DNA from: an uncultured Myxococcales bacterium
GTDB lineage: Bacteria; Myxococcota_A; UBA9042
Assembly: GCA_903919145.1 (NCBI GenBank)
Contig: CAIXGW010000139.1
Span: 33,927-97,926, forward strand
Length of the DNA: 64,000 nucleotides
Reading direction: 5' to 3'
Under the pieces are notes generated by a model. It searched no databases and was not told the origin of the DNA. It saw only the letters and a program-made list of their open reading frames with translations. Positions 11,767 to 50,100 of the stretch are shown here, in pieces (the first letter of the stretch is position 1; each line of letters begins with the position of its first letter). Position numbers and translations under genes: made by a program.

Positions 11767-13521
11767 GTGTATGCGCCACAGCCACCTCTGCAAACCCTGA
11801 CGCTGGCGCCACCGCCACTGCCCCCGCGCCGCTTGACCCAGCTCGGCCGCACCGTGGGGCTGGTGCTTGGCTTGGCGCTGGTAACAGCTTGTTGCGGAAA
11901 GCAGACACCGTCTCCAGCTATAGCGCCAGCCAGGGCTGAGCCGGCCAAGGTTGGGCCGGTCGGTGCCGGGCCAGTTGGGGCCGCTCAGGCGCCAAGACCT
12001 GCCGTACAGCCTAGAAAAGGTAAAAATCTACTGCAGTTGCCTCATGTGACTCTGGTCGCCGTGACGGACTGGCAGGCCACCCTCAAGCCGTGCGGCTGTA
12101 CCCTGGATCTACAGCGCGGCGGCGTTGAGCGGCTGGCGCATTGGCTGGAACTGCAGCGCAAGCAGGACGATTCTCTGGTGGTGGTCCATGCCGGCAGCCT
12201 GCTGCAAGAGGATGAGCCCCATACTTCGCCGGCCAAGCTGGCCCAGGTAGAGCTGCGGCGCGAGGTATTTGGTCAAGCTTTGAAACAGCTGCAGCTGTCA
12301 GCAGTCGCGCTGTCGCGCTGGGACCTGGCCCAGGGCGGTGCCACCGTTGCCGCTGCCTATCAGAAGCTGGAAGCGGTCGTGCTGACCTTGAGTCCGGCGC
12401 CGGGGCTGCAGACCCGCAAGAGCCTGCTCGTCAAGACGGCCTCTGGCGTAACGGTCGGGCTGTTGGCCGTGGACCCGGCGGATGCGCCAGAGGATTTGGC
12501 CCGCCACCAGCTGGTGGGCGCCGAAGTGCAGGTGCTGCGCCAGCAGGGAGCCCAGCTGGTCGTGGCCTTGGCCAACACCGGTCTGCGGGCTGGTCGAAAA
12601 TTAGCGCGCCAGGTCAAGGGTTTGGATGTGGTGGTCATTGGCCAGCTTGACCCCAAGACCGAGCCGAGCCTGGACCTGGACCGCGAGGGAGACGTGCTGC
12701 TGCTTCACGCCACCCGCCACGGCGCCTGGGCCGCGGCGCTGACGCTGGCGCCAGAGGGCGACGGGTCGTGGCAGGAGGCGTCGCAGTTCTTGCCCGACCA
12801 AGCCGAGGCCCTGCGCGGCCGCATCGCCGTGGCCAGCAAGCACCTGCTGGATCTCAAGGGACGGGCGTCGCTTTCGATCGAGCGGGCATTGCCAATGTAC
12901 CAGGCGCAGTTGGATGACCTGGCGGCTCGCCTCAAGGCCGCCGAGGGGGCAGCCAACCAAGAGCTTCCAGCCGGGCGCTTGGGCGCGTACCGCAGCGTTG
13001 GGCTGGACTGGTCGGCGCCCACCCAGCCCCAATTGGCGGCCCTGGTGGCGGCCTATGACGCCGAAGTGGTCAAGGTTGCCGAAAAGCTGGCATCGACGCC
13101 GCTGCCCCCCAAGGCCGGGCAAGCCAGCTATGTGGGCCAGGCAGAGTGTCTGGGCTGCCATGAAGGCGCCGCAGCCTTTGCCAAGCAGAATCCCCATGCC
13201 AAGGCTTGGAAAACCTTGGCCGATGGCGCTCGCACCCGCGACTTGGACTGCGTGCCCTGCCACACCACCGGCTGGGGAAAGCCGGGGGGAGCGGCGTTTG
13301 CCAACGTGGCAAAGTTCAAAGATGTTCAGTGCGAAGCCTGCCACGGTCCCGGGTCGCAGCACGTGGAGGACCCAGAACAAGCCGGCCTGCTGACTCCAGC
13401 CAACGCCAACGCTTGCGCTCCGTGTCACAGCCCAGAGCACTCGCCGCGCTTTGCCTTTGACTTGTACGTCCGTCAGCTCAAGGTGCTGGGCCACGGCCGC
13501 CCGCCAGTGGCCAAGCCATGA
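11767..13521 (+). CDS. Multiheme c-type cytochrome (four CXXCH motifs in the C-terminal ~130 aa) with a large uncharacterised N-terminal domain; probable lipoprotein
   Basis: Heme-binding motifs CLGCH, CVPCH, CEACH, CAPCH near the C-terminus. N-terminal RRLTQLGRTVGLVLGLALVTAC|CGK looks like a lipoprotein signal. Start is approximate (TTG/GTG candidates at 11761-11767; the ORF track begins at TTG 11707, directly after the upstream stop). Confidence 0.7.
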   Translation: MYAPQPPLQTLTLAPPPLPPRRLTQLGRTVGLVLGLALVTACCGKQTPSPAIAPARAEPAKVGPVGAGPVGAAQAPRPAVQPRKGKNLLQLPHVTLVAVTDWQATLKPCGCTLDLQRGGVERLAHWLELQRKQDDSLVVVHAGSLLQEDEPHTSPAKLAQVELRREVFGQALKQLQLSAVALSRWDLAQGGATVAAAYQKLEAVVLTLSPAPGLQTRKSLLVKTASGVTVGLLAVDPADAPEDLARHQLVGAEVQVLRQQGAQLVVALANTGLRAGRKLARQVKGLDVVVIGQLDPKTEPSLDLDREGDVLLLHATRHGAWAAALTLAPEGDGSWQEASQFLPDQAEALRGRIAVASKHLLDLKGRASLSIERALPMYQAQLDDLAARLKAAEGAANQELPAGRLGAYRSVGLDWSAPTQPQLAALVAAYDAEVVKVAEKLASTPLPPKAGQASYVGQAECLGCHEGAAAFAKQNPHAKAWKTLADGARTRDLDCVPCHTTGWGKPGGAAFANVAKFKDVQCEACHGPGSQHVEDPEQAGLLTPANANACAPCHSPEHSPRFAFDLYVRQLKVLGHGRPPVAKP

Positions 13522-13665
13522 TCAAGGGGCTGGGCAAGCTAGCACCCAAGACCGTGAATTCGATCCGGGTTACACCCGGTTCTTGTTCACGGGTCTTGGC
13601 TACTACTACTGGGTCTTCTTCCGTACCCCAAACCACGTCCGTTCCGGAACCCGGAACGAATTTGG
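13522..13665 (+). repeat. Copy A of a ~150 nt conserved intergenic element (second copy inverted at ~58420-58585); contains perfect palindrome GTTCCGGAAC followed by CCGGAACG
   Basis: By-eye alignment to the reverse complement of 58420-58585 gives about 80% identity over ~135 nt (shared blocks CCCAAGACCGT, GTTACACCCGGTT, TGTTCAC, CTTCCGTACCCCAA, CCGTTCCGGAACC). Sits exactly between the cytochrome stop (13521) and the next gene. Neither translation frame is conserved between the copies (one frame hits a stop in copy B), so it is non-coding. Confidence 0.6.
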
Positions 13666-14414
13666 GGGTTGGGGTACTAGTCAGGGCGCTGTTTGTCTTG
13701 TGGGTCATCGTCGCCGCCACCCAGCCAGGGCTCGCCTTGGCCTCTCAGGACCCGGTCGACCCGCACAGCCGGCCACCGCTGTCGACCGCAACGCCAGAAG
13801 AGCCGGCCGCGCCCAAGGATTTTCTCTACGACGGCAACCATGTTGGCCTGATGCTTGGGCCGGTGTTCAGCGGCCTGGACCGGGCCCTGCCGGGGCTGGA
13901 TCGCAACGGCACGGGGCTGCGCCTGGGCGGGCGGATCTCCGCCATTACCCAGTTCATTGACGGCGGCGTCGACCTGCAGCACGTCGAGCACGGCGGCAGT
14001 GCGGCGAGCCTGAGCCGCACCGAGCTTGGCGTACGGGTTGGCAGCCATCCGGCATTTCCCTTTGTGGTCTTCAACAGTTGGATTAACGATGTCATCAGCG
14101 GCGTCCACCTGTACGTCGGTGCGTCGGTGGGGCGGCTGGCGCTGCAGGGGCAACAGGCGGTGGCGGCGGTGGGGCTGGACGGGACCAGCGCCGTGCAGTG
14201 GCGCCCCAGCGCGCTGGTGGGCGTCGGCGCTGACTTGCCGGTGTCGCCGCGCCATCGCCCCAATGGCTGGTGGTTGACCCTGCGCTATGAGCTGCGCTGG
14301 ACTGGCTTTGGCAGCACCGCGCCGCGCCACAACCTGGACGACAGCATGGTGGGGGTACTGCTGGGCTACCGCAGCTACAACAACAGCTGGGCCCGCTGGT
14401 CTCGGCCCTTCTGA
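13662..14414 (+). CDS. Hypothetical secreted protein, possibly outer-membrane beta-barrel
   Basis: TTG at 13662 gives signal peptide (M)GVGVLVRALFVLWVIVAATQPGLALA|SQDP. Alternating hydrophobic beta-strand-like pattern and Gly-rich turns (e.g. VGSHPAFPFVVFNSW, WWLTLRYELRWTGFG). An ATG at 13518 overlapping the upstream stop exists but would make element A coding, so it is disfavoured. Confidence 0.45.
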   Translation: MGVGVLVRALFVLWVIVAATQPGLALASQDPVDPHSRPPLSTATPEEPAAPKDFLYDGNHVGLMLGPVFSGLDRALPGLDRNGTGLRLGGRISAITQFIDGGVDLQHVEHGGSAASLSRTELGVRVGSHPAFPFVVFNSWINDVISGVHLYVGASVGRLALQGQQAVAAVGLDGTSAVQWRPSALVGVGADLPVSPRHRPNGWWLTLRYELRWTGFGSTAPRHNLDDSMVGVLLGYRSYNNSWARWSRPF

Positions 14415-18572: not shown

Positions 18573-20138
18573 TCAAAATAGCAGCAGATTCTGTGGCGGC
18601 GGTCGATCGACGACCGGGTCGACCGCGCTCAGTACAGCCTCTGCCGTGGCCGGTCCGACCCCCGGCAAGGCCAACAGCAGGGCCTTCTTGGCCGCGGCGT
18701 CCAGCCCCTCAAGCCGATCCAGGACTGCGCCTTCGCCGCCCAGCTGCTGCAGGGCCATCGCACAGTCCGCCAGCCAGGTGGCACGGCGGGCCGGTAGCGG
18801 AATGCCAGCCTGCAGCGCCAGTTGGCGGGTAGACTCGCCGCGCTGTTCGGCCGGCAGCGCCTGCAAGGCGGCACTGCTGAGCAGCTGCCGCGCCTGCGGA
18901 TGGGCCGTCAGGTCGACGCCGCCCAGGTGGCGCAGCAGCGCCGGCCACAACACGCTGGCCAGGGCGGGCTGCGGCTTCTCCGGCGCAGGCTGAGCCAAAG
19001 CGGGAAAGAACTCCTCCAGATCGTCTGCCGGGGGAGCGTCAGGCGCCTCGGGCGCTGGTCCTGCCCAAGGCGCTGAGAACAGGTCCGAGCTGTCGGGCAC
19101 GGCGCTGTCAGGCACGGCGCTGTCAGGCACGGCGTTGTCAGGCACGGCGTTGTCAGGCTCGGCGTTGTCAGGCACGGCGTTGTCAGGCACGGCGTTGTCA
19201 GAGTCGGCGTTGTCAGAGTCGGTGCGGGCTGGGCCCTGGGCGTCGTAGGGTTCAGCGTCTTCGCCTTCTGGAGGGCGGACACCGGGCAACAGCGTCACGC
19301 GCAGCTCGTGGGCCGTAGGAATGACTTCCAGCAGGTCGTTCTGAGCGCGCAGCAGATCGGACAGCGTGCGGTGGCCCAAGGCGCGGTGGCGAAAACCCGG
19401 CATGGCCTGCTGAAGCAAATTGCCAATGGCACCAGTGGTCATGGCACCGCGCTGCCCAAGCATTTCCATCAGCAAAGCGCGAACTTGCTCAATGGTTGGG
19501 GAGCGCGGTGGGGCCTGGTCCGCTGGCCGGGAGTCCGCCGTCAGAGCGCTTGAGCCCTGAGCGTTGGCCGGCTCGGCGCTGGACCTGTCGCTGACTGGCT
19601 TGGTGCCGCCTGATCGGTCGCTGTCTTCGCGGTCGGCAGAGGCGGGCTCGGCAGCTGGGCGGTCTCCGCTGGCCCGGTCGGAGGCGAGCCTGTCGCTCAG
19701 CGACCTGTCAAAGTCCAGGCGCTCGAAACGATCACAGGCGGCGACCAGGGTGTCGGCCACTGACCGGCCCTTGGGGGCCACGCCAATGACGATTTTGCCG
19801 CGCGACCGCAACTTCTGGGCCAGCGGCACAAAATCGGAGTCGCCCGTCGCCAGGACGTAGACTTGCACGCTGGGCGTCAGGCTGAGGAACTCCATGACAT
19901 CGACCACGATCGCGATGTCGGCCGAGTTCTTGCCGCCGGTGCGCAGGATTTGGGTCGGCACGCCCCCGACGTCCAGGGTGGTGTCCCAGTGCTGGCCATA
20001 GCCGCGCCGCCAGTCGCCGTAGACCGCCAGATGGCAGACCCGGCCCTGGGTGGCGCCGAAGTCGGCCACCGAGCGGATGAATTGACCGCCGACATTTTCC
20101 ATGTCAACGAAGATGGCCACCAGGGCTGTGCTGACCAT
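18573..20138 (-). CDS. NYN-domain (LabA/PIN-like RNase fold) protein with OST-HTH/LOTUS-like domain and a (VPDNA)n pentapeptide repeat tract
   Basis: N-terminus IFVDMENV...YGDW...KNSADIAIVVDVMEF...VYVLATGDSDFVPLAQKLRSRGKIVIGV is the NYN signature. Mid-region IEQVRALLMEMLGQRGAMTTGAIGNLLQQ is LOTUS-like. Residues ~300-350: DSDNADSDNAVPDNAVPDNAEPDNAVPDNAVPDSAVPDSAVPDS, encoded by a 15 bp tandem DNA repeat (~19075-19215). Confidence 0.75.
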   Translation of the reverse strand: MVSTALVAIFVDMENVGGQFIRSVADFGATQGRVCHLAVYGDWRRGYGQHWDTTLDVGGVPTQILRTGGKNSADIAIVVDVMEFLSLTPSVQVYVLATGDSDFVPLAQKLRSRGKIVIGVAPKGRSVADTLVAACDRFERLDFDRSLSDRLASDRASGDRPAAEPASADREDSDRSGGTKPVSDRSSAEPANAQGSSALTADSRPADQAPPRSPTIEQVRALLMEMLGQRGAMTTGAIGNLLQQAMPGFRHRALGHRTLSDLLRAQNDLLEVIPTAHELRVTLLPGVRPPEGEDAEPYDAQGPARTDSDNADSDNAVPDNAVPDNAEPDNAVPDNAVPDSAVPDSAVPDSSDLFSAPWAGPAPEAPDAPPADDLEEFFPALAQPAPEKPQPALASVLWPALLRHLGGVDLTAHPQARQLLSSAALQALPAEQRGESTRQLALQAGIPLPARRATWLADCAMALQQLGGEGAVLDRLEGLDAAAKKALLLALPGVGPATAEAVLSAVDPVVDRPPPQNLLLF

Positions 20139-20593: not shown

Positions 20594-23017
20594 ATGGCGG
20601 CGAGGCGCGATGAAACCCCGATGCTTCCGGGCCTTGAAGGGCCTGCGCCGCCGCGCCCCAAGCGCACCGCGCCGCAGGCGCCCCAGGCCGCTGCAGCCGG
20701 CCAGCGCTTTGCCGTGATCGCCGACGTGGCGGTGGCGCAGGGGTTGGACGCGTTGAGCTACGGCGTGCCAGAGGCGCTGCTGGCGACCGCCGTGGCCGGT
20801 GCACGGGCCACGGTGCCCCTGCGCGGCAAGCTGGCGGTGGGGCTGATTGTGCAGGTCAGACCAGCAGTTCTTGGTGACCCGCTGCTGGCCAAGCTGCGGC
20901 CGCTGCTGGCGGTGCCCGGCGATTCGCCGCCGCTGCCGGCAGAATTGCTGGAGACCGTGCGGTTTCTGGCGCGCTACTACCACACCCCGCTGGGCTCGGC
21001 CGCGCGGGCCTGTCTGCCGGCGGCGCTGCGCCGCACTGGTGTGGGGGCCGATCGCGCGGCCGACAAGCAAGAACCGTGGGTTGGCGCCACCTGGCTGCGG
21101 CCCTGGCCAGACGATCTGGGCCGCGCTGAGACCCGGGTGCTGCACCGAATCGAAGCCGAAGGCAGCCTGCCGCTAGCGGAATTGCGTCGCAAGTCGCCCC
21201 CAGAGCCGGCGGCACCTGCAGCAGAGGGGGCCGACGCTGTTGCGGCAACCGCTGGGCCCGCCAGGGCCAAGAGCGCTGCGGCGCCCACCGAGCTGCTGCA
21301 AGGGCTTGAGCGCCGCGGGCTGGTCCGGCTGTGGCAGCAGCGGGTCCTGCGCGACCCCCTTGGCATGCGCGAACCCGTCCCCACCGACCAACCGCTGCCG
21401 CTGACGGCCGACCAGGCGGTGGCGGTGTTGGCGCTGCAGCAGGCCATAGAAACGCAGAAATTCTCTGGCTTCTTGCTGCACGGTGTCACCGGATCGGGCA
21501 AGACCGAGGTCTATTTGCAGGCGATCGCCTTGGCACTGGCCCACGGCCGCGGCGCGATTGTGCTGGTACCAGAGATCGCCCTGACCCCGCAGCTGGTCCG
21601 GCGTTTTCGGGCGCGCTTTGGCGATCAGGTGGCGGCCCTGCACTCGGCGATGTCGGAGGGCGAGCGGCTGGACCAGCTTGACCTGGTGCAGGGCGGGCAG
21701 CGGCGCATCGTCATCGGTCCGCGCTCTGCCTTGTTTGCGCCGATGGCCAACGTGGGGGTGCTGGTAGTCGACGAGTGCCATGACGGTTCTTTTAAGCAGC
21801 AGGCAGGGTTGCGCTACCACGCCCGCGACGTGGCCCTGGTGCGGGCGCGCGCGGCCGGCGCGGTGTGCGTCCTGGGCTCAGCGACGCCAGGCTGCGAAGA
21901 GGTAGCGCTGGCCCAAAGCGGACGCTTGACGACGCTGAGCCTGCCGGCAAGAGCGGTGGCGCTGTCGCTGCCGACTGTCAAGGTCATCGACTTGCGCACA
22001 GCCGAGCGACTGCGCGACATCGAGTCCGACCGGCCAAGCATGCTGTCCCACGAGCTGCTGGCGGCCATCTCGGCGACGGTGGCGCGCGGCGAACAGGTCA
22101 TTTTGCTGCACAACCGCCGCGGTTATGCGACGTCGATGGTCTGCGCGGCCTGTGGCACGGCAGTCGAGTGCCCCGAGTGTGCGGTGTCTTTGACCTTGCA
22201 CAAGGGCTCTGGACGCCTGCGCTGCCACTGGTGCGACCTGTCTTTGCCCATGGGGATGAGCTGCCCGACCTGTGGGGCGCGCAACCTGCTGGGCGTCGGC
22301 GCGGGGACGGAGCGCATTGAAGTGACTCTGAGCGCCGAGCTGCCCCACGTGAAGATGGCCCGGTTTGACCGCGACACGGCGTCGGGGCAGCGGCTGCACG
22401 AGACCTTGGGGCGATTTCGCAACCGCGAGCTCGACCTGCTGGTGGGCACCCAGATGCTGGCCAAAGGCCATGATTTTCCAGCAGTGACCTTGGTTGGGGT
22501 GATCCTGGCAGAGGCCGGCCTGGGCATCGCCGATTTCCGGGCTGCAGAGCGGACTTTTCAGCTGCTGACCCAGGTGGCCGGGCGGGCAGGGCGCGGCCAT
22601 CGGCCCGGCACGGTGCTGGTGCAGACGCATCAGCCAGACCACGTGGCCATTCGCTACGCCTTGAACCAAGATCACCAAGGGTTTACCGCTCAGGAACTCG
22701 ACAGCCGCCGCCGATCGGCCTACCCGCCCTATGCCCACCTTGCGCTCCTGGAAGCCCGCCACGCTGACGACCAGCTGGCTCGGGCGGCGATGCAGCATGC
22801 GGTGGCGGCTTTGGAGAGCTGGGGCGCCCAGGTGCGCGGCCCGGTGATGGCTCAGATGGCCAGGGTCAGAAATATTTGGAGGATCCACGCGCTGTTGCGC
22901 AGCGACGACCGGCCGCCCCTTCACCAGTGGCTGACGCGTCTGCGCGCCGAAGTGCTGCCGCTGCTGCCGGCCGCCGTCGAATTCACCATCGACGTCGATC
23001 CAGCCAGTTTTGGCTAG
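20594..23017 (+). CDS. priA: Primosomal protein N' (PriA helicase)
   Basis: Walker A LLHGVTGSGKTEVY, DEAH-type VVDECHDGSF, Cys-rich zinc-binding region CAACGTAVECPECAVSLTLHKGSGRLRCHWCDLSLPMGMSCPTCGARNL, C-terminal winged helix. Start at ATG 20594 (AGGTGG SD 6 nt upstream); 20588 is also possible. The 5' extension of the ORF track to 20444 is rejected. Confidence 0.9.
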   Translation: MAARRDETPMLPGLEGPAPPRPKRTAPQAPQAAAAGQRFAVIADVAVAQGLDALSYGVPEALLATAVAGARATVPLRGKLAVGLIVQVRPAVLGDPLLAKLRPLLAVPGDSPPLPAELLETVRFLARYYHTPLGSAARACLPAALRRTGVGADRAADKQEPWVGATWLRPWPDDLGRAETRVLHRIEAEGSLPLAELRRKSPPEPAAPAAEGADAVAATAGPARAKSAAAPTELLQGLERRGLVRLWQQRVLRDPLGMREPVPTDQPLPLTADQAVAVLALQQAIETQKFSGFLLHGVTGSGKTEVYLQAIALALAHGRGAIVLVPEIALTPQLVRRFRARFGDQVAALHSAMSEGERLDQLDLVQGGQRRIVIGPRSALFAPMANVGVLVVDECHDGSFKQQAGLRYHARDVALVRARAAGAVCVLGSATPGCEEVALAQSGRLTTLSLPARAVALSLPTVKVIDLRTAERLRDIESDRPSMLSHELLAAISATVARGEQVILLHNRRGYATSMVCAACGTAVECPECAVSLTLHKGSGRLRCHWCDLSLPMGMSCPTCGARNLLGVGAGTERIEVTLSAELPHVKMARFDRDTASGQRLHETLGRFRNRELDLLVGTQMLAKGHDFPAVTLVGVILAEAGLGIADFRAAERTFQLLTQVAGRAGRGHRPGTVLVQTHQPDHVAIRYALNQDHQGFTAQELDSRRRSAYPPYAHLALLEARHADDQLARAAMQHAVAALESWGAQVRGPVMAQMARVRNIWRIHALLRSDDRPPLHQWLTRLRAEVLPLLPAAVEFTIDVDPASFG

Positions 23018-23230
23018 GAGCCAAGACCGTTCCTTGGATGCGGGTCACACCTGATTCTTGTTTACCGACCTTGGTTTGGCTGTTGGGCCTTGCTTGATAG
23101 CCAAAGACCTTGGGACAGCCGGCAGCGCCGCGCCCAGACCTGCTCTCTGGCGGGCGCAGCGACCCAACCTGGCAGCCCCGGCGCCCGCCTGAGAGCCTCG
23201 CCGCCCCTGCCCAACTGCCTTGGCTTATTG

Positions 23231-23236
23231 TATACT
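23231..23236 (+). promoter_or_regulatory. Candidate -10 hexamer TATACT (AT-rich island in GC-rich DNA) ~85 nt upstream of the alpha-2-macroglobulin start
   Basis: CTTGGCTTATTGTATACTCGCC is a rare A/T-rich hexamer in a 70% GC intergenic region. The -35 is poor (TGCCCA at 17 nt spacing). Weak, sequence-only call. Confidence 0.2.
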
Positions 23237-23320
23237 CGCCGACCGCGATGCCGACGCCCGCGGCACGCCCCTGCGGCGCCGATCCGTTCCACAGTTGACT
23301 TGCCGTTCCAAGAGGTTTCC

Positions 23321-33451: not shown

Positions 33452-35110
33452 TTGGACGATTGGGGGATTGCGGTGGCCTTGTTCGAGCGCTTTGAGCGGT
33501 GGCAGACGGAGGATTTTGACGCGTTTTTGGAGCCCAAGTGGGCCTCGAATCGCTTCAACGTCGAGCGCGGGCGGGTGCGCGAGCGCTTGCGCTCGGCCTT
33601 TGAACAGATCGGCGAGGGCCACCCGCAACTGCTGAGCGGCCTGGAGGTCTGGGTCAGCCGCCAGGATCCCTGTTTTTTCAACCAGCACAGCGTCCGGCAG
33701 CTGCTGGCGGTGGTGGTAAGGCCGCAGGCGCACAGGGAGGTGCTGGAGCACGCCGACCCGCGCCTCTCGGCCACCCAGCCGGACCGCTGCCACGCCCACG
33801 CCGGCCTGCGCATCGACGCCACCAGTGTCGAGCTGCTGCTGGCGGTGCCGGAAGAGGCCCACTTTGACCTGGCGATGAGCGAAGAAGCTCGCCAGGGTCT
33901 GAGCGAGTTTGGGTTGCTGCTGGGCCAGGCCGACGTACAATTCCAGGGTGGCCTAAGGGTCTCGCGCACGTTTGACCGGCAAGAAGCCCTGGACTGGCCC
34001 GATCCGCTGGCGCAGCTGGTCGAGTGGCTAGAGCTGGCGGCGCCGCTGCTGCGGCAATTGCTCAGGCCGGTCGCGGCGGAGCCGCAGTCTTACAGCGAAG
34101 CGGCTGGCAGCGCGCCGGCGGCGGAGCGCCAAGAGGGCTTGGGCCCTGATGACCCGGCTCGTGCGGCCCCGCGCTCTTCTCTGCCGCCGTTGGGGCCGGC
34201 GATGCGGCCCTCTTTGCAGCTGGGCCCCGCTGGCCGGCCGCAGGCGCGCCTGGCCAGCGCCTTTGCCGAAACCCCAGCTGCTGCCAGCCTTTCTGCTGGC
34301 ACCCAGGTCACCACCCAGGGCGCGGCGCCAGCCAGCGCCGCTGCGCCGCAGCCTCAAGCCTGGACCCGCCAGCCCTACCGTCCGCAGATGCCGGCGCCCC
34401 AGCGCCAGCGCGCGACCCAAGACCGGCCCGACCTCGATCGCATCCTACCGCTGGGCGCCAAGCAGGCGCTGCAGGAGCTGCTGCAAGACGAGCAGCAACG
34501 CCGCCAACCCGAGCCGCCGCGCGACCCGCGGCCCCCCGTTGCCGAGCGCCGGCCGGATGCCCGGCAAGACCACCGCCAGGACCCGCGCCAGGACCCGCGC
34601 CAAGACCAGCGTCCAGACCACCGCCAGGACCAGCGTCCAGACCAGCGTCCGCCGCAGGGCCGGCCTGATCTGCGACCGGACCTTCGCCAAGAGCCGCGCC
34701 AGGAGACGCGCGGTGACCAGCGGCAGGATCCTCGGCTTGAAGCGCGGCGCCCCGACCAGCGCTCAGACCCCCGCCAGGACCAGCGGCGGGACGTTCGCGG
34801 TGACCCGCGCGGCGATTCCCGCGGCGACCAGCGGCGCGACCCCCGCCAGGACCCCCGCCAGGACCAGCGCCAGGACCCCCGACAGGACCCGCGGCAGGAC
34901 CCGCGCAACGCGCCGCGCGCCCAGCCGCCGCAGGCGCCCGCACCAGCCGACCGCCCGCAGACGCCGCCGATTGGCACGGCAGTGGTGCTGACCGGCGGTC
35001 TGCTGGCCGGCAAAGAGGGCGTGTTTGTGGCGATGAGAGGGCCCAACGTCAGGGTCAAAGTCGGTGTCCTGGAATTTGAGGTGGCGCCGTACCAGGTGCG
35101 GGTGAAATAG
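33452..35110 (+). CDS. Hypothetical protein: ~220 aa N-terminal domain, ~330 aa disordered Arg/Gln/Asp/Pro tract with degenerate RQDPR/RPDQR pentapeptide repeats, short C-terminal beta domain
   Basis: 552 aa ORF (TTG start per track; true start uncertain). Middle: ...RQDHRQDPRQDPRQDQRPDHRQDQRPDQRPPQGRPDLRPDLRQEPRQETRGDQRQDPR... C-terminus GTAVVLTGGLLAGKEGVFVAMRGPNVRVKVGVLEFEV. Stop is 3 nt before the next gene. Confidence 0.5.
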   Translation: MDDWGIAVALFERFERWQTEDFDAFLEPKWASNRFNVERGRVRERLRSAFEQIGEGHPQLLSGLEVWVSRQDPCFFNQHSVRQLLAVVVRPQAHREVLEHADPRLSATQPDRCHAHAGLRIDATSVELLLAVPEEAHFDLAMSEEARQGLSEFGLLLGQADVQFQGGLRVSRTFDRQEALDWPDPLAQLVEWLELAAPLLRQLLRPVAAEPQSYSEAAGSAPAAERQEGLGPDDPARAAPRSSLPPLGPAMRPSLQLGPAGRPQARLASAFAETPAAASLSAGTQVTTQGAAPASAAAPQPQAWTRQPYRPQMPAPQRQRATQDRPDLDRILPLGAKQALQELLQDEQQRRQPEPPRDPRPPVAERRPDARQDHRQDPRQDPRQDQRPDHRQDQRPDQRPPQGRPDLRPDLRQEPRQETRGDQRQDPRLEARRPDQRSDPRQDQRRDVRGDPRGDSRGDQRRDPRQDPRQDQRQDPRQDPRQDPRNAPRAQPPQAPAPADRPQTPPIGTAVVLTGGLLAGKEGVFVAMRGPNVRVKVGVLEFEVAPYQVRVK

Positions 35111-37387: not shown

Positions 37388-37416
37388 TTGAAATCTGCGG
37401 GTGCAAAAGCTATTTT
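37388..37416 (+). promoter_or_regulatory. Sigma-70-like promoter candidate TTGAAA-17 nt-TATTTT upstream of the giant Cys-rich lipoprotein gene
   Basis: CTTGAAATCTGCGGGTGCAAAAGCTATTTTG. -35 matches TTGACA at 5/6, 17 nt spacer, -10 matches 4/6. Lies ~100 nt upstream of ATG 37518. Sequence-only call. Confidence 0.25.
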
Positions 37417-37517
37417 GGGCGCTGGCTGCCGCTTTCCCAGTGCAAAGAGTGCTTGGCTTTTTTGGCCTGCGCACCTGGATCGCCGGGCGAGGCGGCGATG
37501 CCCAAGGGAGCAAGGCC

Positions 37518-40500
37518 ATGAGTGTCGCGCGTCGGCAAGAGGGCCCCCTAGCAGAGGGGCACAGGATGGGGGCGACGCGGGCCGGCCCTGTGCAGCGGCG
37601 ACCTTGGGCTTGGCTGGCGCTGTCCTTGGCCCTCTGCGCGGCGATCGCTGGGGGGTGTGAAGGCAAGTTCCTGACAGCCGAGCAGATCGACCAGCGCTTG
37701 GATGCGGCTGGGACGGCCGCCGATGGCGCGGATGTCGCTGGATTGGAGGGCGACGCCGACTCGCAGGCGGACACGCTGGCGGCTGCGGATTCAGACGGCG
37801 CCGGCTCTTCCGACTCAGCTGGCGAGACCGCCAGCGGCTGTGTCAGCGCTGCCGACTGCAGCGATGGCAACCCTTGCACCACCGATGCGTGCCCTGCGTC
37901 CGGAACCTGCGAGCACACTGCCATCGCCGACGGCGGCACCTGTGACGACGGCAATGCCTGCACCGCCGGCGAATTCTGCGCCGCTGGCAAGTGCGGCGGT
38001 GGCACCGTCAAACACTGCGACGACAACAACGTCTGTACCGCCGACGCCTGCCTGCCCGCCAAGGGCTGCACCCACACCGACGACGACGGCGCGACCTGCG
38101 ATGACGCCGACCCCTGCACAGTGGGCGACAAGTGTCTGGCCGGCCAATGCCAAGCCCAGCCCAAAGACTGCGGCAATGACGCGTGCACCACTGCCAAGTG
38201 CGTCAACGGCGTGTGCAAGTCCGCCAGCAAGGTCGACGGCTTGGACTGCGACGACAAAGATGGCTGCACCAGCGGCGACAAGTGCCAAGACGGCCTGTGC
38301 GTCGGCGCCCAAAAGACCCTCTGTGACGACAAAAATCCATGCTCAATAGATAGTTGTGTGGGCACCCTGGGCTGCCAGTTTGCGCTGGTCGATGGGCCGT
38401 GCAGCGACGGCGATGCTTGCACCCTGGGCGACACCTGTGCTGGCGGGACCTGCGCAGCCGGGGCGACCAAGGCCTGCGATGACGGCAATCCCTGCACCCA
38501 AGACCTGTGCCAGCCAGTGGATGGCAGCTGTGCCGTGACGCCGACCGCCGGCCCCTGCAGCGACGGCAATGCCTGCACCACCGGCGATGGCTGCGCGGCC
38601 GGCGCGTGCTCTGCGGGCAAGCTGGCGGGCTGCGATGACAACAATCCGTGTACGGTCGACAGCTGCGACGCCAATTCTGGCTCCTGCACGGCGCTTTTCA
38701 ACACCGCCGGCTGCGAGGACGGCGATGCGTGTACCGTGGGCGACAGCTGCAGCGGCGGCGAGTGCAAGGCCGGTGCGGTCAAGCCCTGCGCCGACAGCGA
38801 CACCTGCACCAGCGACGCTTGCGACGCCAAGACTGGCGCGTGCCAACACAGCAAAATCAATGGCTGCGGCGAGTTTTGCGCCAGCGTGGCCGACTGCAAG
38901 GCCGGCAACGTGTGCAATCAAGTGGCATGCCTGAGCGGCAAGTGCGCGTTCCTGCCCACCACGGCCATCTGCGACGATGGCGATGCTTGCACGCTGGCCG
39001 ATCAGTGCGGCGCCGGAGCCTGCCAGCCCGGCAGCCCCAAGAATTGCGACGACGGCAAGCCCTGCACCACCGACAGCTGCCAGGCCGGCACCTGCAACCA
39101 CGCCAACAACAGCGACCCGTGCTCGGACAACAACGCATGCACCCAGGGCGATCTCTGCAAAGGCGGCGCCTGCGGCTCAGGCAAGGCCAAGGCCTGCGAC
39201 GACGGCAATCCCTGCACCAGCGACAGCTGCGACGTCAGCAGTGGCGACTGTCAGGCAACGGCCAACAGCGAAGCCTGCGACGACAAAAACCCCTGCACCA
39301 GCACCGACAGCTGCCAGCTGGGCCAGTGCGCCGCCGGCACCCCAGTGAACTGCGACGACGGCAACCTCTGCACCCACGACAGCTGCGACGGCAAGACCGG
39401 CACCTGCGTCCACGCCAACAACAGCGCGCCGTGCAGCGACGGCAATGCCTGCTCCGAGGGCGACGTCTGTGCCCAGGGCAGCTGCGCCAGCGGGGCCGCC
39501 AAGGTGTGCCAGGACGGCAATGCCTGCACCAACGATGCCTGCGATCCGCTCAGCGCCGCCTGCCTTTACACCCCCAACGCCGCGCCCTGCAGCGACGGCG
39601 ACGCCTGCACCATCGGCGACAGCTGTGCGGCAAGCGGCTGCAAAGCGGGGGCCGCCAAGGTCTGCGCCGACAGCGACACCTGCACCAACGACACCTGCGA
39701 TTCTGCTAGCGGCAACTGCGTTTACAAGCCGATTACCGGCTGCGGCGGCAACTGCACCAAGCCCAGCGACTGCGGCGACGCCAACCCATGCACCGACGAC
39801 TCCTGCGTCAGCGGCAAGTGCGCCTTTCCAGCCAATACGGCCGCGTGCAGTGACGGCAACGCCTGTACCGTCAGTGACCTGTGCAGCGGCGGAACCTGCA
39901 AGGCGGGCGCGACCAAGGCCTGCAGCGACGGCAATCCGTGCACGGCCGACGCCTGTGACAACAAGAGCGGCGACTGCGGCCACACCCCCAATGTCGCCGG
40001 CTGCGATGACGGCAACGCCTGCACGGCGGGAGACGTCTGCGGCGGCGGTGCGTGCAAGGCTGGCAAGGCCACCGACTGCAGCGACGGCAATCCGTGCACC
40101 GACGACGCCTGCGATCCCACCAGCGGCAACTGCAAGTCCAGCTCCAACACAGCGACTTGTACCGACGGCAATGCCTGCACCAGCGGCGACGTCTGTGCCG
40201 GTGGCACCTGCAAGCCCGGCGCGGCCAAGGGTTGCGATGACGGCAACCCCTGCACCAATGACGCCTGCGACCCGCTGAGCGGCGTTTGCTCCAAGGTGGC
40301 CAACTCTGCCCAATGCAGCGACGCCAATGACTGCACCCAAGGCGATTTGTGCTCCGCTGGCGTGTGCAAGCCCGGGGCGGCCAAGGCCTGCGACGACAAG
40401 AACGTCTGTACCCAAGACAGCTGCGACGCCGCCAGCGGAGCGTGCGTGGCCGCGCCCAACGCCGCGCCCTGCGACGACGGCAGCAAGTGCACCCAGGCCG

Positions 40501-43500
40501 ACAAGTGCACAGCCGGCAGCTGCCAGCCGGGCACCGCCAAAGTCTGCGACGACGGCCAGGCTTGCACGATCGACAGCTGCAGCCCAGGCGACGGCAGCTG
40601 CGTGTTTGCACCCAAGATCGGCTGTGGCGGCAACTGCAACACCGCCAGCGACTGCAGCGATGGCAACGGCTGCACCGACGACCAGTGCGCTGCCGGCAAG
40701 TGCGCGTTTCCCAACAACACTGCCAGCTGCACGGACAACAACCCGTGCACCCTGCAAGATGCCTGCAGCGGCGGCACCTGCAAGGCCGGCAGCGCCAAGA
40801 CCTGTGACGACAGCAATCCCTGCACCAATGACAGCTGCAATGCCACCACCGGCCTGTGCAATTATGTAGGAAATACAGCAGGGTGTTCGGACAGCGACGC
40901 TTGCACCGCCCCGGACCTGTGCGCCAACAGCAATTGCACACCGGGGGCCAAGAAGACCTGCACAGACAACAACCCGTGCACCAATGATAGCTGCAATCCC
41001 GCCACCGGCGCTTGCGTCAACGCCAACAACAGCGCCGTATGCAACGACAACAACGCCTGCACGTCTGGCGACATCTGCAGCGGCGGCAGCTGCGCTGGCC
41101 CCGTGACCGTGGGCTGCGACGACGGCAAGCTGTGCACAACGGACAGCTGCGACCCGGCCGGCGGCTGCAAGACCGTCAACAACAGCTCGCCGTGCAATGA
41201 CAACAACCTCTGCACCACCGGCGACACCTGCTCGGGCGGCGGCTGCGTGGGCGGGTCCGCACCGGTGTGCAATGACAACAACGCGTGCACCACCGATAGC
41301 TGTGCTGCGGCCATTGGATGCAAGTTCGACGCCAATACCAACGCTTGCGAAGACGGCAACAAGTGCACCCTCAACGACGTCTGCAGCGCTGGAACCTGCA
41401 GCGCCGGCTCGGGCAAGACCTGCACGGACAGCGACACCTGCACGACCGACAGCTGCGATCCAGCCAGCGGATCCTGCGTCTACAAGCCCATCATCGGCTG
41501 CGGCGGCTACTGCGACAGCAGCGCCAACTGCAATGACGGCAACCTCTGCACCGACGACGCCTGCGTGGCCGGAAAGTGCACCAACACTGCCAATACCGCT
41601 AATTGCACTGACAATGACGCCTGCACCACCGGCGACAAGTGCAGCGGCGCAGCCTGCAAGCCCACCGGCACGCTGACCTGCAGCGACGGCAACGTCTGCA
41701 CCAGCGACAGCTGTGTCAAGGCCACTGGTTGCAGCTTTGTCAACAATAGTGCCAGCTGCACAGACAACAATGCCTGTACTACCGGCGACTTGTGCTCGGG
41801 CGGTGCCTGCCTGGGCGGCGCCCCGCCCAGCTGCGAGGACAACAACGGCTGCACGACGGACAGCTGCGACAAGGGCAAGGGCTGCCAGAACCTGGCCAAC
41901 AACGCGCCCTGCGACGATGGCGACGCCTGCACCGCCAATGAGCAATGCGCCAAAGGCAATTGCGTGGCCACCACCGACGTGCTGTGCACTGACAACAACG
42001 CGTGCACCAACGACTCCTGCGACAAAGCCCAGGGCTGCGTGTTCACCAACGTCAGCAACGGCGCCGGCTGCGACGACGGCAAGCCCTGCTCGCTGGGCGA
42101 CAGCTGCCTGGCGGGGCAGTGCAAGGCTGGAGTGGCGGTGTGGGTAGACAGGCTGGCCGGCTCTGTTCCAGCCCCCAACAGCGGCGCTGGCGGCGGCAGC
42201 TATGCGGAGGGCACCGGCGAAAAGGCGGCCTTCAACACCCCCATGGGCATCGCGTTTCACCCAGGGGTCAATGTCCTGGTCGTGGCTGATACCTATAACC
42301 ACCTGATCCGAAAGGTGACGTTGCAGGGAAAGGTCAGCGATATCGCGGGTGTAGCCGGCAAGGGCAGCTATGCCGATGGCCAGGGCAGCAATGCGGCGTT
42401 CAACCTGCCAATGGGCGTCGCCGTGAGACCAGATGGGCAGATCCTGGTCGCTGACACGGGCAACCACCTGATCCGCGCAGTGATGATCGATGGCACCGTT
42501 ACCACTGTAGCTGGTACAGGCAGCGGCGGCAGTCAGGATGGCAGCGTCAAGTCGGCCACCTTCGTAGGGCCGCGCGGCGTGGCGGTCAGCGTGGGAGGTG
42601 TTGCTGCCATCGCGGACACGGGCAATCACATGATTCGCCTGATAAAGCTTAGTGAGGGGCTGGTGGTGACGCTGGCCGGATCTCCCTCAGCTGGGTTCAA
42701 AGACGGCATGGGCAGCGCCGCGCAGTTCAACACTCCCGTTGGCGTGGCCTTTGACACAGCGGGTCGCCTCTACGTGGCGGACCAAAGCAATCACCGGATT
42801 CGCCAAGTCCTGCCCAGCGGACAGGTCTTGACGGTAGCCGGCGATGGCACGGCGGGCATGGCCGACAGCACCAACCCCCTGTTGGCCAAGTTCAACTTCC
42901 CGGCCGGGGTGCTTGTGGCGCCCACGGGGCTGTTTGTGGCTGACAGCTTCAATGGCCGCATCCGCCGCGGCGCAGCCAATGGCGTGGCCACGCTGGCCGG
43001 CTCAGGCACTGGGGCCGTCGATGGGCTCGCGGCCAGCGCCACCTTCTACCTGCCCCAGAGCCTTGCGGCCGATAGCGGCGGCTACCTCTACGTCGCCGAT
43101 GTCTACAACCACTTGATCCGGCGGGTGCGCGACTCCAGTGGGGGGTGCACCATCAATGGCCAGTGCGTCGTGGGCGGCTGGTGGAAGCCGGGAGCCAGCT
43201 GCTACCGCTGCGAGGCAGCCTCCTCTGCCACCGCCTGGACGGGCAAGCCCAACGGCGCGCCGTGTGATGACGGGCTGCTCTGCACCGCTGAAGACCTCTG
43301 CAACTACAAGTCGGGGCCGGTGGCGTGCAACGGCACGGTGGTCACCTGCAACGACGGCAATGCGTGCACCAACGACTCTTGCAGTGCGGCCACCGGGGCG
43401 TGCCAGAACCTGGCCGGCAGCGGCGCCTGCGACGACGGCAGCCCCTGCACCTATCCCGACACGTGCAGCGGCGGCAGCTGCGGGGCCGGCACCCAAAATG

Positions 43501-47110: not shown

Positions 47111-50100
47111 TCAGTAGTTGTTCTTGGTCCACTTGAGGCGGTACGGACGCACGTTGTGCTTGTCCTTTGAGGTCTTGCCCTTGACCTTGACCAAAAAGTA
47201 GCCCTTGAAGTCCTGGTTGGGCACGTTGGCAAAGGCATAGCACGAGTCGGCGGCATCACCGGCATTGGCGCTAGAACAGCTGGCATAGCTGCCGTCAGCA
47301 TTGGTGATTTCCAGGTCATAGTTGATGCCGGTGGGCAAGCCAGAGATGGTCACCGTGTAGCCGGTCCAGTAGCCAAAGATCGGCAAGCGGTAGTAGTCGA
47401 CGTCGCCCTGGCGGTCGATAAACGCCTGGATGTCGCCCTGGGGCCCGGCCAGAATCGGCGCCTTGGCAGGGTCGCCATTGGGTTCGTAGGAGTCGTACTG
47501 GCCGTTGAATTGCATGGGGTTAAGGTACATTCGGTCGCCCCACCAGTCGATTCGTTCGGGGCTCCAGCTGTTCTCGCCAAGTTCATAGCAAGCCATGTAC
47601 TGCCCGTCGCCAAACATCACCTCCATGCGGCCATCGTGGTCCATGTCGGCCACCGTAGAGCTCTGGACGCCGCCGCCCTTGGTGGGCACCGGCCAGCCGG
47701 GCACTGACTTGCCGTTGGCGCCCACGATGTTGTTGCCCGCCAGCTGCTCCATGACGCCATCGCCGTTGAGGTCGGCAAACACCGAGCCGTAGTCGGCGCC
47801 CCAGCTCCACTTGCCGCTGTGGGTCAGGTCCATGGGCAGGCCGCTCAAGTTGCCGCTGGCCAGCACGTTGCCGGTGGCGTCGAGCAGGTAGCCGCCGTTG
47901 GGCGGGAACACCAGCTCGGTCTTGCCGTTGCCGCTGTAGTCGAGCACCGCGGCGCTAGAGGTCCACCAGTACTTTTGGCCAGTGGCCCAGCACTTGTCTG
48001 GATTGGCCGGATCAAGGGGGCAGAAGCGCTTGAAGCTGTCAGAAGCTTTGTCATAGCGCCACGCGTAGATGCGCCCGTCTGGGTGGTCGCCTTCGGATCC
48101 GGAGCCGTAGCCCGAGCCAGCCATCACTTCCAGCACGCCGTCGCCGTCCAGGTCGACCATCACCGGCGAGTAGATTTCCCAGGCGCCCGCGGCGTCGGTG
48201 ACCAAGGTGTGGACCTTGCCCGGGCCCCACTTGCCGTTGCCATCCCAGGTGCCGGCGTTGAGCACGTAGCCAGACCAGATCGAGGTGGCCACGTCAGGCA
48301 CGCCGTCGCCGGTGACGTCTCCTACCGCGGCGCTGCCGTAGCTGCCGCTGATGTCAGCCCTCTTGCCGTTGCGGTCGTAGACGCCGTTCAGGCAGACCAC
48401 GTCCCAGTCAAAATCGGGGCGCGCATCCAGCTGGGCTACCGTGGGCCGCCACCATGAGCTGCTGCAGCCGGGCAGGTCGATCTTCTTTTCGCCCAAGGCG
48501 TTCAGGACCTGGGCGCGGCAGCCCACAATCAGGTCGCCAGTGCCGTCATTGTCAAGATCGACGGGAGCCACCGGGCACTGCACGTCGCCGGGGCCCATAA
48601 AGACTGGCCACTTGCCGGCACACGGCGTGGGGCAGGTCTGGTCCTTGCTGCCATTGCAGTCGTTGTCTTTGCCGTCGCACAAGTCCAAGGCACCTGGGTA
48701 GATGGTGACGTCGGAGTCGTCGCAGTCCCAGTCGGGCGAGCCGTCGCTCTTGACGTCCTTGGCCGTGGCCCAACCGACCGGCACATTGCACTTCTCCTGC
48801 TTGGCGGCGTTGGCCGAGGCAAAGCTGTCGCCGTCATTGTCCTTGTAGATGAGCTGCACCGAAAGGCCATCGTCGATCAGGCTGTTGCAGTCATCGTCCA
48901 GGTCGTTGCAGACTTCCTTGGCGCCGGGGGACATGTTCTTGTTGAAGTCGTTGCAGTCTCCGGACTCGGCGGTGTAGCCCTTGGGGGCCGTGCAGGCGAG
49001 CTGCGACGTGACCGAGCCGTAGCCGTCGCCGTCGTTGTCTTTGTAGAAAGCGATCAAGGTGTTTTCGTCAGCCTGGCTGTTGCAGTTGTCATCGACGCCG
49101 TTGCAGGTCTCTGCCTTGCCCGGATAGACCGCGGCCTCGTTGTCATTGCAGTCGCCGGTCTTGTTGGCTGTCCACTCGCCTGTGGCTTTGCAGTAGCACA
49201 CGGCGGTGACGTTGGCGCCAAACTGGTCTTTGTCTTTGTCTGGATAGAAGTTGCTGCAGCCGGTGGCGCCAATCGGGTCGGTCTGGCCGTCGCAGTTGTC
49301 GTCTGCGCCGTTGCACACTTCGGCGGCGCCTGGCTTGGCGTTGGCGCTGCCGTCGTTGCAGTCGCCGCCCACAAAGGCGGTGTAGGGGTACTTGGCGGCC
49401 CCAAGGCACTGCTTGTCGCCGTCGATGCCGTAGCCGTCCTGGTCGCCGTCTTTGAAGTAGTCGCTGCAGCCCTGGCAGCCCGACTCGTCGGTCTGGCCGT
49501 TGCAGTTGTTGTCCTTGGTGTCCAAGCACTTTTCGGTCTGGGCGGGGTACACGGCCGGGTCGGTGTCCAGGCAGTCGCCGCCCTGCTTGGCGGTGTAATT
49601 GCCGGCCGGCGAGCAGGAGCACTTGGCGGCGCCGATGCCCGCGCCATCGCCATCGACATCGCTGTAGAATTGAATGCATCCTTTGGCATTTTCGTCATTT
49701 TCGCTGCCGTTGCAGTTGTCGTCCTTGCCGTTGCCGCAGGTCTCTGGCTGGGCTGGGTGCACCGCGCCGTCCAGGTCGTTGCAGTCGCCCGCCTGGCTGG
49801 CCACAAAGGTGCCGGTCTTGGCGCAGAGGCACTTCTCGCTGCCCGAACCCCAGCTGTCGCCGTCGCCATCGGCAAACAACTTGATGCAACCGCTGGCATT
49901 TTCTTCATCGGTGGCGCCATTGCAGTTGTCGTCTGCCTGGTTGCAGGCCTCGGCGGCGCTGGGGTACACCTTGGCGTTGCCGTCGTCGCAGTCGCCGCCT
50001 TTTTGGGCCTTGTACTTGCCGCTAGACATGGTCAGGCACTTCTTGTCGCCGTCGATGCCAAAGCCGTCGCCGTCGCCGTCCAGGAACAACACCGTGCAGC

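Follow-up and report, generated by a model that had tools for sequence, protein, structure and literature searches.

A repeat of about 150 nt is present in opposite orientations at two places of the window, the whole 64-kb stretch of DNA analyzed here. Does it represent a family of structured RNAs or a mobile element? A sequence-only reading had preferred structured non-coding RNAs (ncRNAs) or cis-regulatory leaders, with a MITE- or ERIC-like repeat as the alternative. The analysis described below indicates that the repeat is very probably a MITE, a miniature transposon without coding capacity, of a new family targeting CTAG, and not an ncRNA family. It is the family itself that is new; MITEs are a well-known kind of selfish DNA.

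Copies in the window

The presence of two conserved copies in opposite orientations was confirmed by a repeat search of the 64-kb window, which yielded ungapped arms of 151 nt with 77% identity at 13533-13683 (+) and 58409-58559 (-). By blastn, copy A and copy B were 80.3% identical over 132 nt (E = 2e-30), a likeness far beyond chance. The element was indeed found where it had been placed (13522-13665 and around 58420-58585), and its boundaries were better set at 13539-13680 (+) and 58412-58553 (-).

Copy A is full length and measures 142 nt from CTAG to CTAG, with the element proper at 13543-13676, a covariance model (CM) score of 192.8 bits and six differences from the family consensus. The CTAG on its 5′ side (13539-13542) represents either a duplicated target site or a CTAG target in which TA was duplicated; the CTAG on its 3′ side is at 13677-13680. 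Copy B, likewise 142 nt and full length, is old: it carries 27 differences from the consensus (81% identity) and is flanked by CCGG and CTTG, where other copies have CTAG. It is located between the divergent rSAM (ATG 58600, +) and Lrp/AsnC (ATG 58304, -) genes. A left flank of 6 nt, GGCAAG, is common to copies A and B, which is unexpected if the insertions were independent. Two other features considered for copy B, a duplicated CCAA (4 nt) and an inverted repeat made of GGCAAGC and GCTTGCC, were dropped in view of the CTAG boundaries of the other copies.

The repeat is not restricted to these two copies. A third, degenerate and 3′-truncated copy (copy C) was detected at 23014-23108 (+), spanning consensus columns 1-96 (nhmmer E = 6e-11, CM E = 1e-7). 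It begins directly after the stop codon of priA, and its 5′ CTAG (23014-23017) is provided by the last codon and the stop codon of that gene (GGC TAG). The GC content of the element was 0.54-0.56, that of copy B 0.62 and that of the window 0.67.

Orthologous sites in relatives

The element was absent from all three orthologous sites in relatives showing 73-85% nucleotide identity in genes, which makes them other species and not strains. The rSAM-Lrp spacer measured 295 nt in the window versus 159-160 nt in relatives L015 and L014, giving a clean empty site, and the insert was directly abutted by GGCAAG and CCAAC as flanks. Since GGCAAG is present in relatives without the element, it is host flank, although it had been proposed as part of an enclosing stem of copy B, where it forms the left arm; that stem is therefore fortuitous. 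No CTAG was present in the empty sites of L014 and L015. Together with the CCGG and CTTG ends of copy B this fits, without proving, the decay of an old copy. At the sites of copies A and C, the element was absent from L005, L006 and L008, the cytochrome/OMP junction of L005 consisting of unrelated sequence. L005, L006 and L007 natively carry GGCTAG at the priA stop, to which the element sequence is directly joined in the window. This is the only direct evidence that CTAG is derived from the target.

Further copies and family statistics

Additional copies were obtained by means of a profile of the translation of the open antisense frame of the element, which was run on 1.84e9 protein representatives. 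Eight spurious open reading frames (ORFs) from metagenome assemblies were retrieved (E from 1e-34 to 3e-10), and the corresponding contigs contained another five full-length and three partial copies at no fewer than four further loci. Most of these copies were on contigs of 0.6-5 kb, and some of the contigs may come from species other than that of the window. This brings the family to seven full and four partial copies at no fewer than seven distinct loci.

All seven full copies were exactly 142 nt long, could be aligned without gaps and had unrelated flanks; their consensus is CTAGTACCCAAGACCGTTAATTCGATCCGGGTTACACCCGGTTCTTGTTCACAGGTCTTGGCTACTACTGCTGGGTCTTCTTCCGTACCCCAAACCACGTCCGTTCCGGAACCCGGAACGAACTTGGGGTTTGGGGTACTAG. 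Leaving out copy B, 11 of 12 copy ends were exact CTAG, a tetranucleotide that is about fourfold under-represented in the window (45 occurrences in 64 kb, whereas base composition predicts 195). In L098 and L101, tandem copies had one CTAG in common between neighbors, and arrays and clusters, including truncated copies, were present among the contig copies. Similarity to the consensus was star-like, with six copies at 94-96.5% (5-9 differences per 142) and copy B at 81%. Orientation relative to genes was mixed across the family, the L099 and L102 copies being antisense to the adjoining genes. Except for copy A, copies were extragenic or within spurious gene calls.

No copy was detected in 585 kb of other Myxococcota loci including close relatives (CM search), in 1.4 Mb of collected loci (nhmmer) or in 80 loci around Lrp homologues in GTDB genomes (nhmmer, with the Myxococcota subset also searched by covariance model). 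The absence of copies from the Myxococcota loci searched indicates that the family is lineage-restricted. A pattern of the 5′ module, matching all three window copies, gave zero matches in the genome and metagenome contig collections, as did a pattern of the 3′ module in the metagenome contig collection. Two consensus patterns gave zero matches in the viral contig collection and blastn of the consensus found no match among plasmids. The source organism is accordingly missing from these collections. Copies A, B and C, translated in six frames and joined into one protein query, gave no match among up to 8000 candidates, a number probably swamped by other sequences. A word-index search with the peptide alignment as query gave two proteins only, and contigs sharing same-species window proteins matched the window at about 100% identity and contributed nothing new. 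A literature search on myxobacterial MITEs or REPs yielded nothing specific.

Terminal repeats and hairpins

The ends of the family are imperfect inverted repeats of about 11-15 nt, 5′-TA(C/G)CCAAGACC... and ...GGTTTGGGGTA-3′. In this terminal inverted repeat the 5′ CTAGTACCCAAGACC opposes CTAGTACCCCAAACC, the reverse complement of the 3′ end. What had been described as an enclosing stem of copy A, CTAGCACCC...GGGTACTAG, corresponds to this repeat plus the flanking CTAG. Each terminal repeat has an internal inverted partner, and a single strand thus folds into two long hairpins (columns 2-67 and 85-139), the two palindromic modules differing from each other.

Both modules were recovered in copy A by self reverse-complement matching, RNA folding and the consensus structure. 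In module 1 (13540-13605, +) the outer arm TAGCACCCAAGACC pairs with GGTCTTGGCTACTA, and TTCTTGTT comes directly after the apical stem CCGGGT-TAC-ACCCGG. The arrangement has a terminator-like look, and a terminator-like scan match was obtained at 13565-13579. In module 2 (13623-13677, +) GTACCCCAAACC pairs with GGTTGGGGTAC. The palindrome GTTCCGGAAC and the adjacent CCGGAA half-site, pointed out earlier, are present as sequence and are in fact the tip of the module 2 stem-loop, CGTTCCGG-AAC-CCGGAACG.

Coding and RNA tests

The 34 mismatches between copies A and B were distributed over the codon positions as 10/13/11, with no frame better conserved. A coding element was rejected on this even spread, and the earlier statement that the repeat is non-coding, with no conserved reading frame, holds. 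Two of the six frames of the element are open.

Copy A and the consensus folded far better than shuffled sequences (z = -5.85 for RNA and z = -6.6 for DNA, respectively), whereas copy B folded no better than its shuffles (z = +0.76). The Rfam and covariation checks that had been suggested for an RNA family both came out against it. No Rfam match was obtained at gathering thresholds across the window, and when the regions of copies A and B were scanned with a permissive E-value, only chance-level matches came up (E > 3); membership of an Rfam family was rejected on both scans. In the alignment of the seven full copies, a number of sequences that gives low power, two double-change pairs were found versus 1.1 expected, a level reached in 115 of 500 shuffles, and the covariation score was 0.055 versus 0.044 in shuffles (46/500). 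Most departures were pair-breaking, with 20 cells that break base pairs. Compensatory changes were seen at columns 7-62 and 32-36, and given these two pairs weak selection may act on the hairpins. The L098 copy has a C-to-U/G-to-A change at the apical stem of hairpin 2, which was examined as a compensatory change and rejected: once the bases are placed in register, a U-G pair and a G-A mismatch result.

Host gene of copy A

Both copies had been thought to fill intergenic gaps. For copy B this is correct; copy A lies in frame inside the ORF at 13518-14414 (+), an OMP-like gene without Pfam hit whose ATG (13518) overlaps the cytochrome stop codon. It may not be strictly intergenic. The insertion of 138 nt adds 46 codons without a stop. 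Following its removal, the N-terminus reads MIKGLGKLVRALFVLWVIVAATQPGLALA|SQ, which restores a canonical signal peptide, and the alignment of the product to its L005 orthologue begins at aa 73. Copy A looks like an in-frame insertion in the apparent signal-peptide coding region of the downstream gene. An alternative in-frame start, TTG 13662, is located inside copy A.

Transposition model and known elements

The MITE- or ERIC-like alternative is supported by the inverted repeats, the CTAG ends, the unrelated flanks, the tandem copies, the empty sites and the star-like phylogeny. In short, the features of a MITE were found: a small element, far below 500 bp and without coding capacity, with terminal inverted repeats, is dispersed between unrelated flanks, and differs in presence at orthologous sites between what are different species. 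A target-site duplication was found as well, although CTAG, being a palindrome, is not formally separable from the inverted repeat and may be counted as part of it.

Because the family targets CTAG, a transposase of the IS630 or IS5 type is inferred. An IS located elsewhere and sharing the ends of the element would supply a DDE transposase. This enzyme would bind the terminal repeats, excise the element and insert it at a CTAG tetranucleotide, duplicating the whole CTAG if it is of the IS5 type and the central TA if it is of the IS630 type. Where a new copy inserts into the target that a resident one has already duplicated, tandem copies with a single CTAG would be expected. The family is presumably still active. 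Copies could also have effects on neighboring genes: polarity may result from the terminator-like hairpin, the rSAM/Lrp control region may have been displaced by 138 nt, and the gene after the cytochrome may have gained 46 codons in frame or a start at the new TTG. In the window and the short contigs and loci read, there was neither a partner transposase of the IS630 or IS5 family nor a solo inverted repeat, and no autonomous IS sharing the ends of the element was found.

The junctions, C-TA-G...C-TA-G, fit a TA duplication and a 4-bp CTAG duplication equally. Insertion at CTAG with duplication of the central TA is the behavior of IS630 itself, and would give exactly the junctions of the element. 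IS630-derived MITEs such as RUP of Streptococcus pneumoniae, Nezha of cyanobacteria and Correia/NEMIS of Neisseria, of about 100-160 bp, can carry terminator- or promoter-like signals. Like the present element, they have no coding capacity, terminal inverted repeats, many mostly intergenic copies and whole-unit hairpins; the element differs from them in its uncultured Myxococcota-like host, and no sequence similarity was found in the Rfam, plasmid and viral searches. The IS5 group makes a 4-bp duplication of a CTAG/YTAR target, and IS5-family elements and MITEs have in common with the element CTAG on both sides and short terminal inverted repeats. The ends of the element (TACCC...) appear unlike the IS5 inverted repeat.

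Two other groups were compared. ERIC/IRU and other enterobacterial repeats are likewise imperfect palindromes of about 127-150 nt, extragenic, in either orientation and variable at orthologous sites, but have another sequence and host, whereas in the element the palindromes form two separate modules and the target tetranucleotide is clear. Rickettsia palindromic elements (RPEs), of about 100-150 nt, are palindromic too and can sit in frame inside genes, as copy A may do with its 46 stop-free codons; here this is one possible case only, with a putative start codon.

Alternative explanations

A reading in which the MITE has moreover been co-opted at some sites is rather unlikely. It would have copy A translated as 46 extra in-frame residues within the n-region of the signal peptide of a secreted or outer-membrane protein, in the manner of RPEs, or providing a new TTG start for that gene; or the terminator-like hairpin and the TTCCGGAA stem-loop acting as portable regulatory modules that rewire operons such as cytochrome/OMP and rSAM/Lrp in this lineage; or a transposase of an undescribed CTAG-targeting group.

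There is little chance that the repeat is a REP/REPIN moved by a RAYT (Y1, IS200/IS605-like) transposase, or an IS200/IS605-derived PATE, with the hairpins as recognition structures in single-stranded DNA. The element is made of two long imperfect palindromes, and the reverse complement of its internal arm begins with GTAG (GTAGTAGCCAAGACC), resembling the conserved REP head. Like REPINs, copies are palindromic, clustered in arrays, extragenic and lineage-specific. REP/REPIN and IS200/IS605 elements, however, are not known to have whole-unit terminal inverted repeats or to make a target duplication, whereas the present element has the same palindromic CTAG at its two ends, together with an inverted repeat of about 11-15 nt. 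The 142-nt unit, with its two different palindromes, is also not an inverted doublet of one short REP, and no RAYT gene was seen in the very little sequence that was searchable.

It is highly improbable that the repeat is immobile and was spread by recombination or duplication, or is a selected terminator or protein-binding cassette, for instance for a regulator recognizing TTCCGGAA. This core is kept in six of seven copies, and the terminator-like stem and T-run of hairpin 1 were flagged in copies A and C, both sense and just after a stop codon. Precise identical ends, unrelated flanks, a target tetranucleotide and tandems with one CTAG are, on the other hand, marks of transposition and not of segmental duplication. 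Orientation is mixed, and copy B, between divergent genes, has nothing for a terminator to end. Terminator or binding functions could be secondary to the MITE origin.

The structured ncRNA or leader family that had been preferred, its two hairpins forming a functional RNA fold upstream of controlled genes, is hardly credible and already largely refuted: the good fold of copy A and the consensus, the two compensatory pairs and the sense orientation to a downstream gene that can be assigned to each of the three window copies are opposed by the lack of an Rfam match, covariation no higher than the shuffle control, the unremarkable fold of copy B, the antisense copies of L099 and L102, downstream genes that are functionally unrelated (OMP-like protein, Lrp, alpha-2-macroglobulin), relatives keeping the same genes without the element, and the tandem arrays and clusters of truncated copies.

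Significance

With the MITE reading, the repeat is settled as selfish mobile DNA and not a new RNA family, which spares a search for RNA function. The family breaks metagenome assemblies. Because two of its six frames are open, it also misleads gene callers, which then report spurious ORFs or extend genes falsely at the N-terminus; P0133-P0140, P0144 and the 485-aa rSAM call are examples. The consensus can be used for masking the family and for seeking its transposase. In an uncultured Myxococcota-like lineage that has no close reference genome in the scanned genome collection, the element marks recent genome change.

Copies of the element in the window

The sequence-only reading described a repeat occurring twice in opposite orientations. 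This was borne out by a repeat search of the window, which returned inverted arms at 13533-13683 and 58409-58559 (151 nt, 77% complementary, ungapped), and by blastn, in which copy A (13539-13680, + strand) and copy B (58412-58553, − strand) aligned at 80.3% over 132 nt (E=2e-30); the identical blocks previously listed were visible in a MAFFT alignment. A third, shorter copy (copy C, 23013-23105, + strand; nhmmer E=6e-11, covariance model E=1e-7) starts at the stop codon of the priA gene, with an alpha-2-macroglobulin gene downstream. A covariance model made from A and B and run on the window with filters off detected no copies beyond A, B and C. Copy B was confirmed to lie between an Lrp/AsnC gene (ATG 58304, − strand) and a radical-SAM gene (ATG 58600, + strand), which are divergent. 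Conservation was, as proposed, at the nucleotide level and not coding: copies A and B mismatch at 34 positions, spread 10/13/11 over the codon positions, and no frame was better conserved than the rest.

Several other repeats in the window lie within ORFs. A giant ORF of 2491 aa (37401-44876, + strand) contains about 25 cysteine-rich repeats with a period of 153-156 nt and the motifs TGC...GACGGCAA...TGCAC, and resembles a type of cysteine-rich repeat protein that is frequent in Myxococcota. An ORF of 1914 aa (47111-52855, − strand) is marked by numerous GTCGCCGTC/GCAGTCGTCGTC-rich repeats (Asp/Cys-rich on the minus strand); its equivalent in contig L001 carries precomputed Pfam matches to TSP_3, Cu-binding_MopE and FG-GAP. 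Tandem repeats of 12 nt (GACCNGCGCCAG-like) form a long stretch at 34520-34950 inside ORF 33452-35110, and about ten tandem 15-nt units (TGTCAGGCACGGCGT) lie at 19061-19240 inside the NYN/OST-HTH gene at 18573-20138 (− strand).

Further copies and host lineage

Exact-pattern scans of genome and metagenome collections gave 0 matches, even with a pattern fitting all three window copies, so the source organism is absent from those collections. In copies A, B and C alike, one of the element's antisense frames is open, and its translation was used as a search profile. The aligned translations were searched against 1.84 billion protein representatives, matching eight spurious ORFs (E 1e-34 to 3e-10) with the peptide STPNPKFVPGSGTDVVWGTEEDPAVVAKTCEQEPGVTRIELTVLGTS in common. 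The contigs of these ORFs, L098-L104, carry further copies (nhmmer E=1e-42 to 4e-46). L098, a contig of 642 nt, has 1.7 tandem copies; L099 and L100 represent the same locus in two samples, with one copy; in L101, a stretch of about 900 nt holds two full copies and two partial ones; L102, L103 and L104 are the same locus in three samples, with one copy. The copies are clustered in L101 (four copies or fragments at 136-1002) and arranged head-to-tail in L098 (331-610), and in L102 the full copy is immediately preceded on its 5′ side, at about 2909-2945, by a degenerate remnant of another copy's 3′ end (...GGGTTCGCGGCACTAG).

Contigs with window proteins came either from the same species (~100% identity) or from relatives. 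PriA and Lrp homologues placed the host in a Myxococcota-like lineage that is uncultured; among named genomes, the closest share only about 44-68% protein identity with it. The contig from which the window comes is 107,233 bp long. The L099 sample (ERZ27313213) also has a window-identical contig, and the L099 CHAT locus was recorded in ERZ1426635, which likewise has window-identical contigs; this co-occurrence is consistent with the same organism, without proof.

Element anatomy and ends

All seven full copies were exactly 142 nt long and aligned with zero gaps. When copies were aligned with their flanks, similarity ended sharply at both element ends, the outer flanks being unrelated. With copy B left out, the ends were CTAG in 11 of 12 cases, the exception being CTAC at the 3′ end in L099. 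CTAG is 4.3-fold under-represented in the 64-kb window (45 observed vs 195 expected from base composition), and because of this rarity the CTAG flanks are not due to chance; element flanks account for three of the 45 sites in the window. Neighbouring copies in L098 and L101 have one CTAG in common between them. The GC content of the element was 0.54-0.56 vs 0.67 for the window.

Imperfect inverted repeats lie inside the CTAGs, TACCCAAGACC at the 5′ end and, as reverse complement, TACCCCAAACC at the 3′ end. Since every terminal repeat is matched inside the element by an inverted partner, a single strand folds into a pair of long hairpins, spanning columns 2-67 and 85-139; folded as DNA, the consensus gave −37.5 kcal/mol (z=−6.6). 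The sequence earlier read as a GTTCCGGAAC palindrome plus CCGGAA half-site is present, but is actually the tip of hairpin 2, CGTTCCGG-AAC-CCGGAACG. Partial copies (C; L098 331-472; L101 723-864 and about 477-545) kept the 5′ module, the 3′ module being lost or degraded. The 6 nt left of the element, GGCAAG, are common to A (13533-13538) and B (58554-58559) and were seen in no other copy. They are native at site B, as they are present in the relatives' empty sites, and the shared flank was taken to be either coincidental or due to a weak extended target preference.

Insertion sites and age of the copies

Relatives were 73-85% identical to window genes at the nucleotide level, and the alignments broke exactly at the element. 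At site B, the window's spacer between the radical-SAM and Lrp genes measures 295 nt, as against 159-160 nt in related loci L015 and L014; ...CAAGGCAAG on the left and CCAAC... on the right, both conserved, adjoin the 142-nt block directly, and where the block stands L015 has the five nucleotides CGCCG. The best evidence that CTAG is contributed by the target rather than by the element is the priA site: the last codon and stop are GGC TAG in L005, L006 and L007, all three without the element, and in the window the native CTAG is immediately followed by element sequence GAGCCAAGACC.... Site A is occupied by unrelated sequence in L005. Neither an nhmmer search of loci totalling about 1.4 Mb nor a covariance-model search of their 585-kb Myxococcota subset, which included the relatives, detected any copy.

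Six copies carried 5-9 differences from the consensus over 142 positions, with 89-96% mutual identity and a star-like pattern. Copy B had 27 differences and had lost its CTAGs (CCGG and CTTG); its folding did not surpass that of shuffled sequence (z=+0.76; copy A, z=−5.85).

Synteny downstream of priA is broken in L006 (5888-9174; PriA 81% identical), where, instead of the alpha-2-macroglobulin gene, there is a nearby gene for a Y2_Tnp-family transposase. A motif upstream of the alpha-2-macroglobulin gene, CCCTGCCCAA...TTATTGTA(T/C)ACTCGC, is conserved at about 23195-23240 in the window, about 12480-12515 in L005 and about 2820-2860 in L008; no other part of the spacer between priA and this gene could be aligned, and the motif is probably the promoter. 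Upstream of the Lrp/AsnC gene, a block TCGTCACC..ACTATCATTTATAGCTGGACGG....TTGACGATAGTACATTGGC is conserved in L014-L017 and the window (58305-58365, − strand), the spacer outside it being unalignable among relatives; the block is likely to be the promoter of the Lrp gene together with an operator for autoregulation.

Nature of the element

Small size, absence of coding capacity, terminal inverted repeats and a specific two-sided target tetranucleotide, together with target-sharing tandem copies, empty orthologous sites and a burst-like phylogeny, define the element as a MITE, which a DDE transposase would move in trans. The MITE/ERIC-like alternative raised earlier was thus the right one, given the terminal repeats, CTAG target, empty sites and copy phylogeny. 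As no IS with the element's ends, nor a solo end, was found in the window and fetched loci, we infer the transposase. Two bacterial families produce CTAG-flanked insertions: IS630, which targets CTAG and duplicates TA, and the IS5 group, with a 4-bp duplication of CTAG/YTAR. The element junctions fit both alike.

A family of structured non-coding RNAs or cis-regulatory leaders, also suggested at first, was unsupported. The seven full copies were tested for covariation on the RNAalifold structure with 500 shuffles. Paired cells reached 93.8%, mostly reflecting inherited palindromy, and 20 cells broke pairs; at the low statistical power of seven sequences, double-change pairs numbered 2 vs 1.1 in shuffles (reached by 115/500) and the covariation score was 0.055 vs 0.044 (46/500). 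Orientation to neighbouring genes was mixed (A and C sense, L099 and L102 copies antisense), and the genes downstream are functionally unrelated. Against Rfam, the whole window gave nothing at gathering thresholds, and when the regions of copies A and B were scanned permissively the matches were at chance level only.

Possible local effects on genes, and effects on annotation

Copy A lies 18 nt downstream of the cytochrome stop codon. Its net insertion of 138 nt (46 codons) has an open frame in register with the ORF from ATG 13518, which overlaps that stop. The earlier suggestion that this ATG could make copy A coding holds as to the open frame, but the start in use may be ATG or TTG. With the insertion taken out, the N-terminus reads as a canonical signal peptide, MIKGLGKLVRALFVLWVIVAATQPGLALA followed by SQ, and the mature part aligns to the L005 orthologue only from residue 73; both observations suggest that copy A was probably inserted into the signal-peptide coding region of the downstream gene. 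This gene would either tolerate 46 extra residues or start at TTG 13662 within copy A. Hairpin 1, a GC stem followed by TTCTTGTT, was terminator-like in copies A and C by a simple terminator scan, both copies lying in sense just after a stop codon. Copy B would displace the conserved Lrp promoter/operator block 138 nt from the radical-SAM start.

Gene callers run through open frames of the element. Of the 289 positions in the CHAT model, the 467-aa 'CHAT' protein P0145 (L099 3601-5004) matches only 2-80, the remainder of the protein being element translation and junk. P0144 and some radical-SAM calls have false N-terminal extensions through an element copy, and a 485-aa radical-SAM call at the copy B site in ERZ1426635 is a gene call through the element frame.

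The element family is new, its type already known. Its interest is modest and chiefly concerns annotation and assembly of the host lineage, with the possible in-frame insertion of copy A in a signal peptide as a curiosity.
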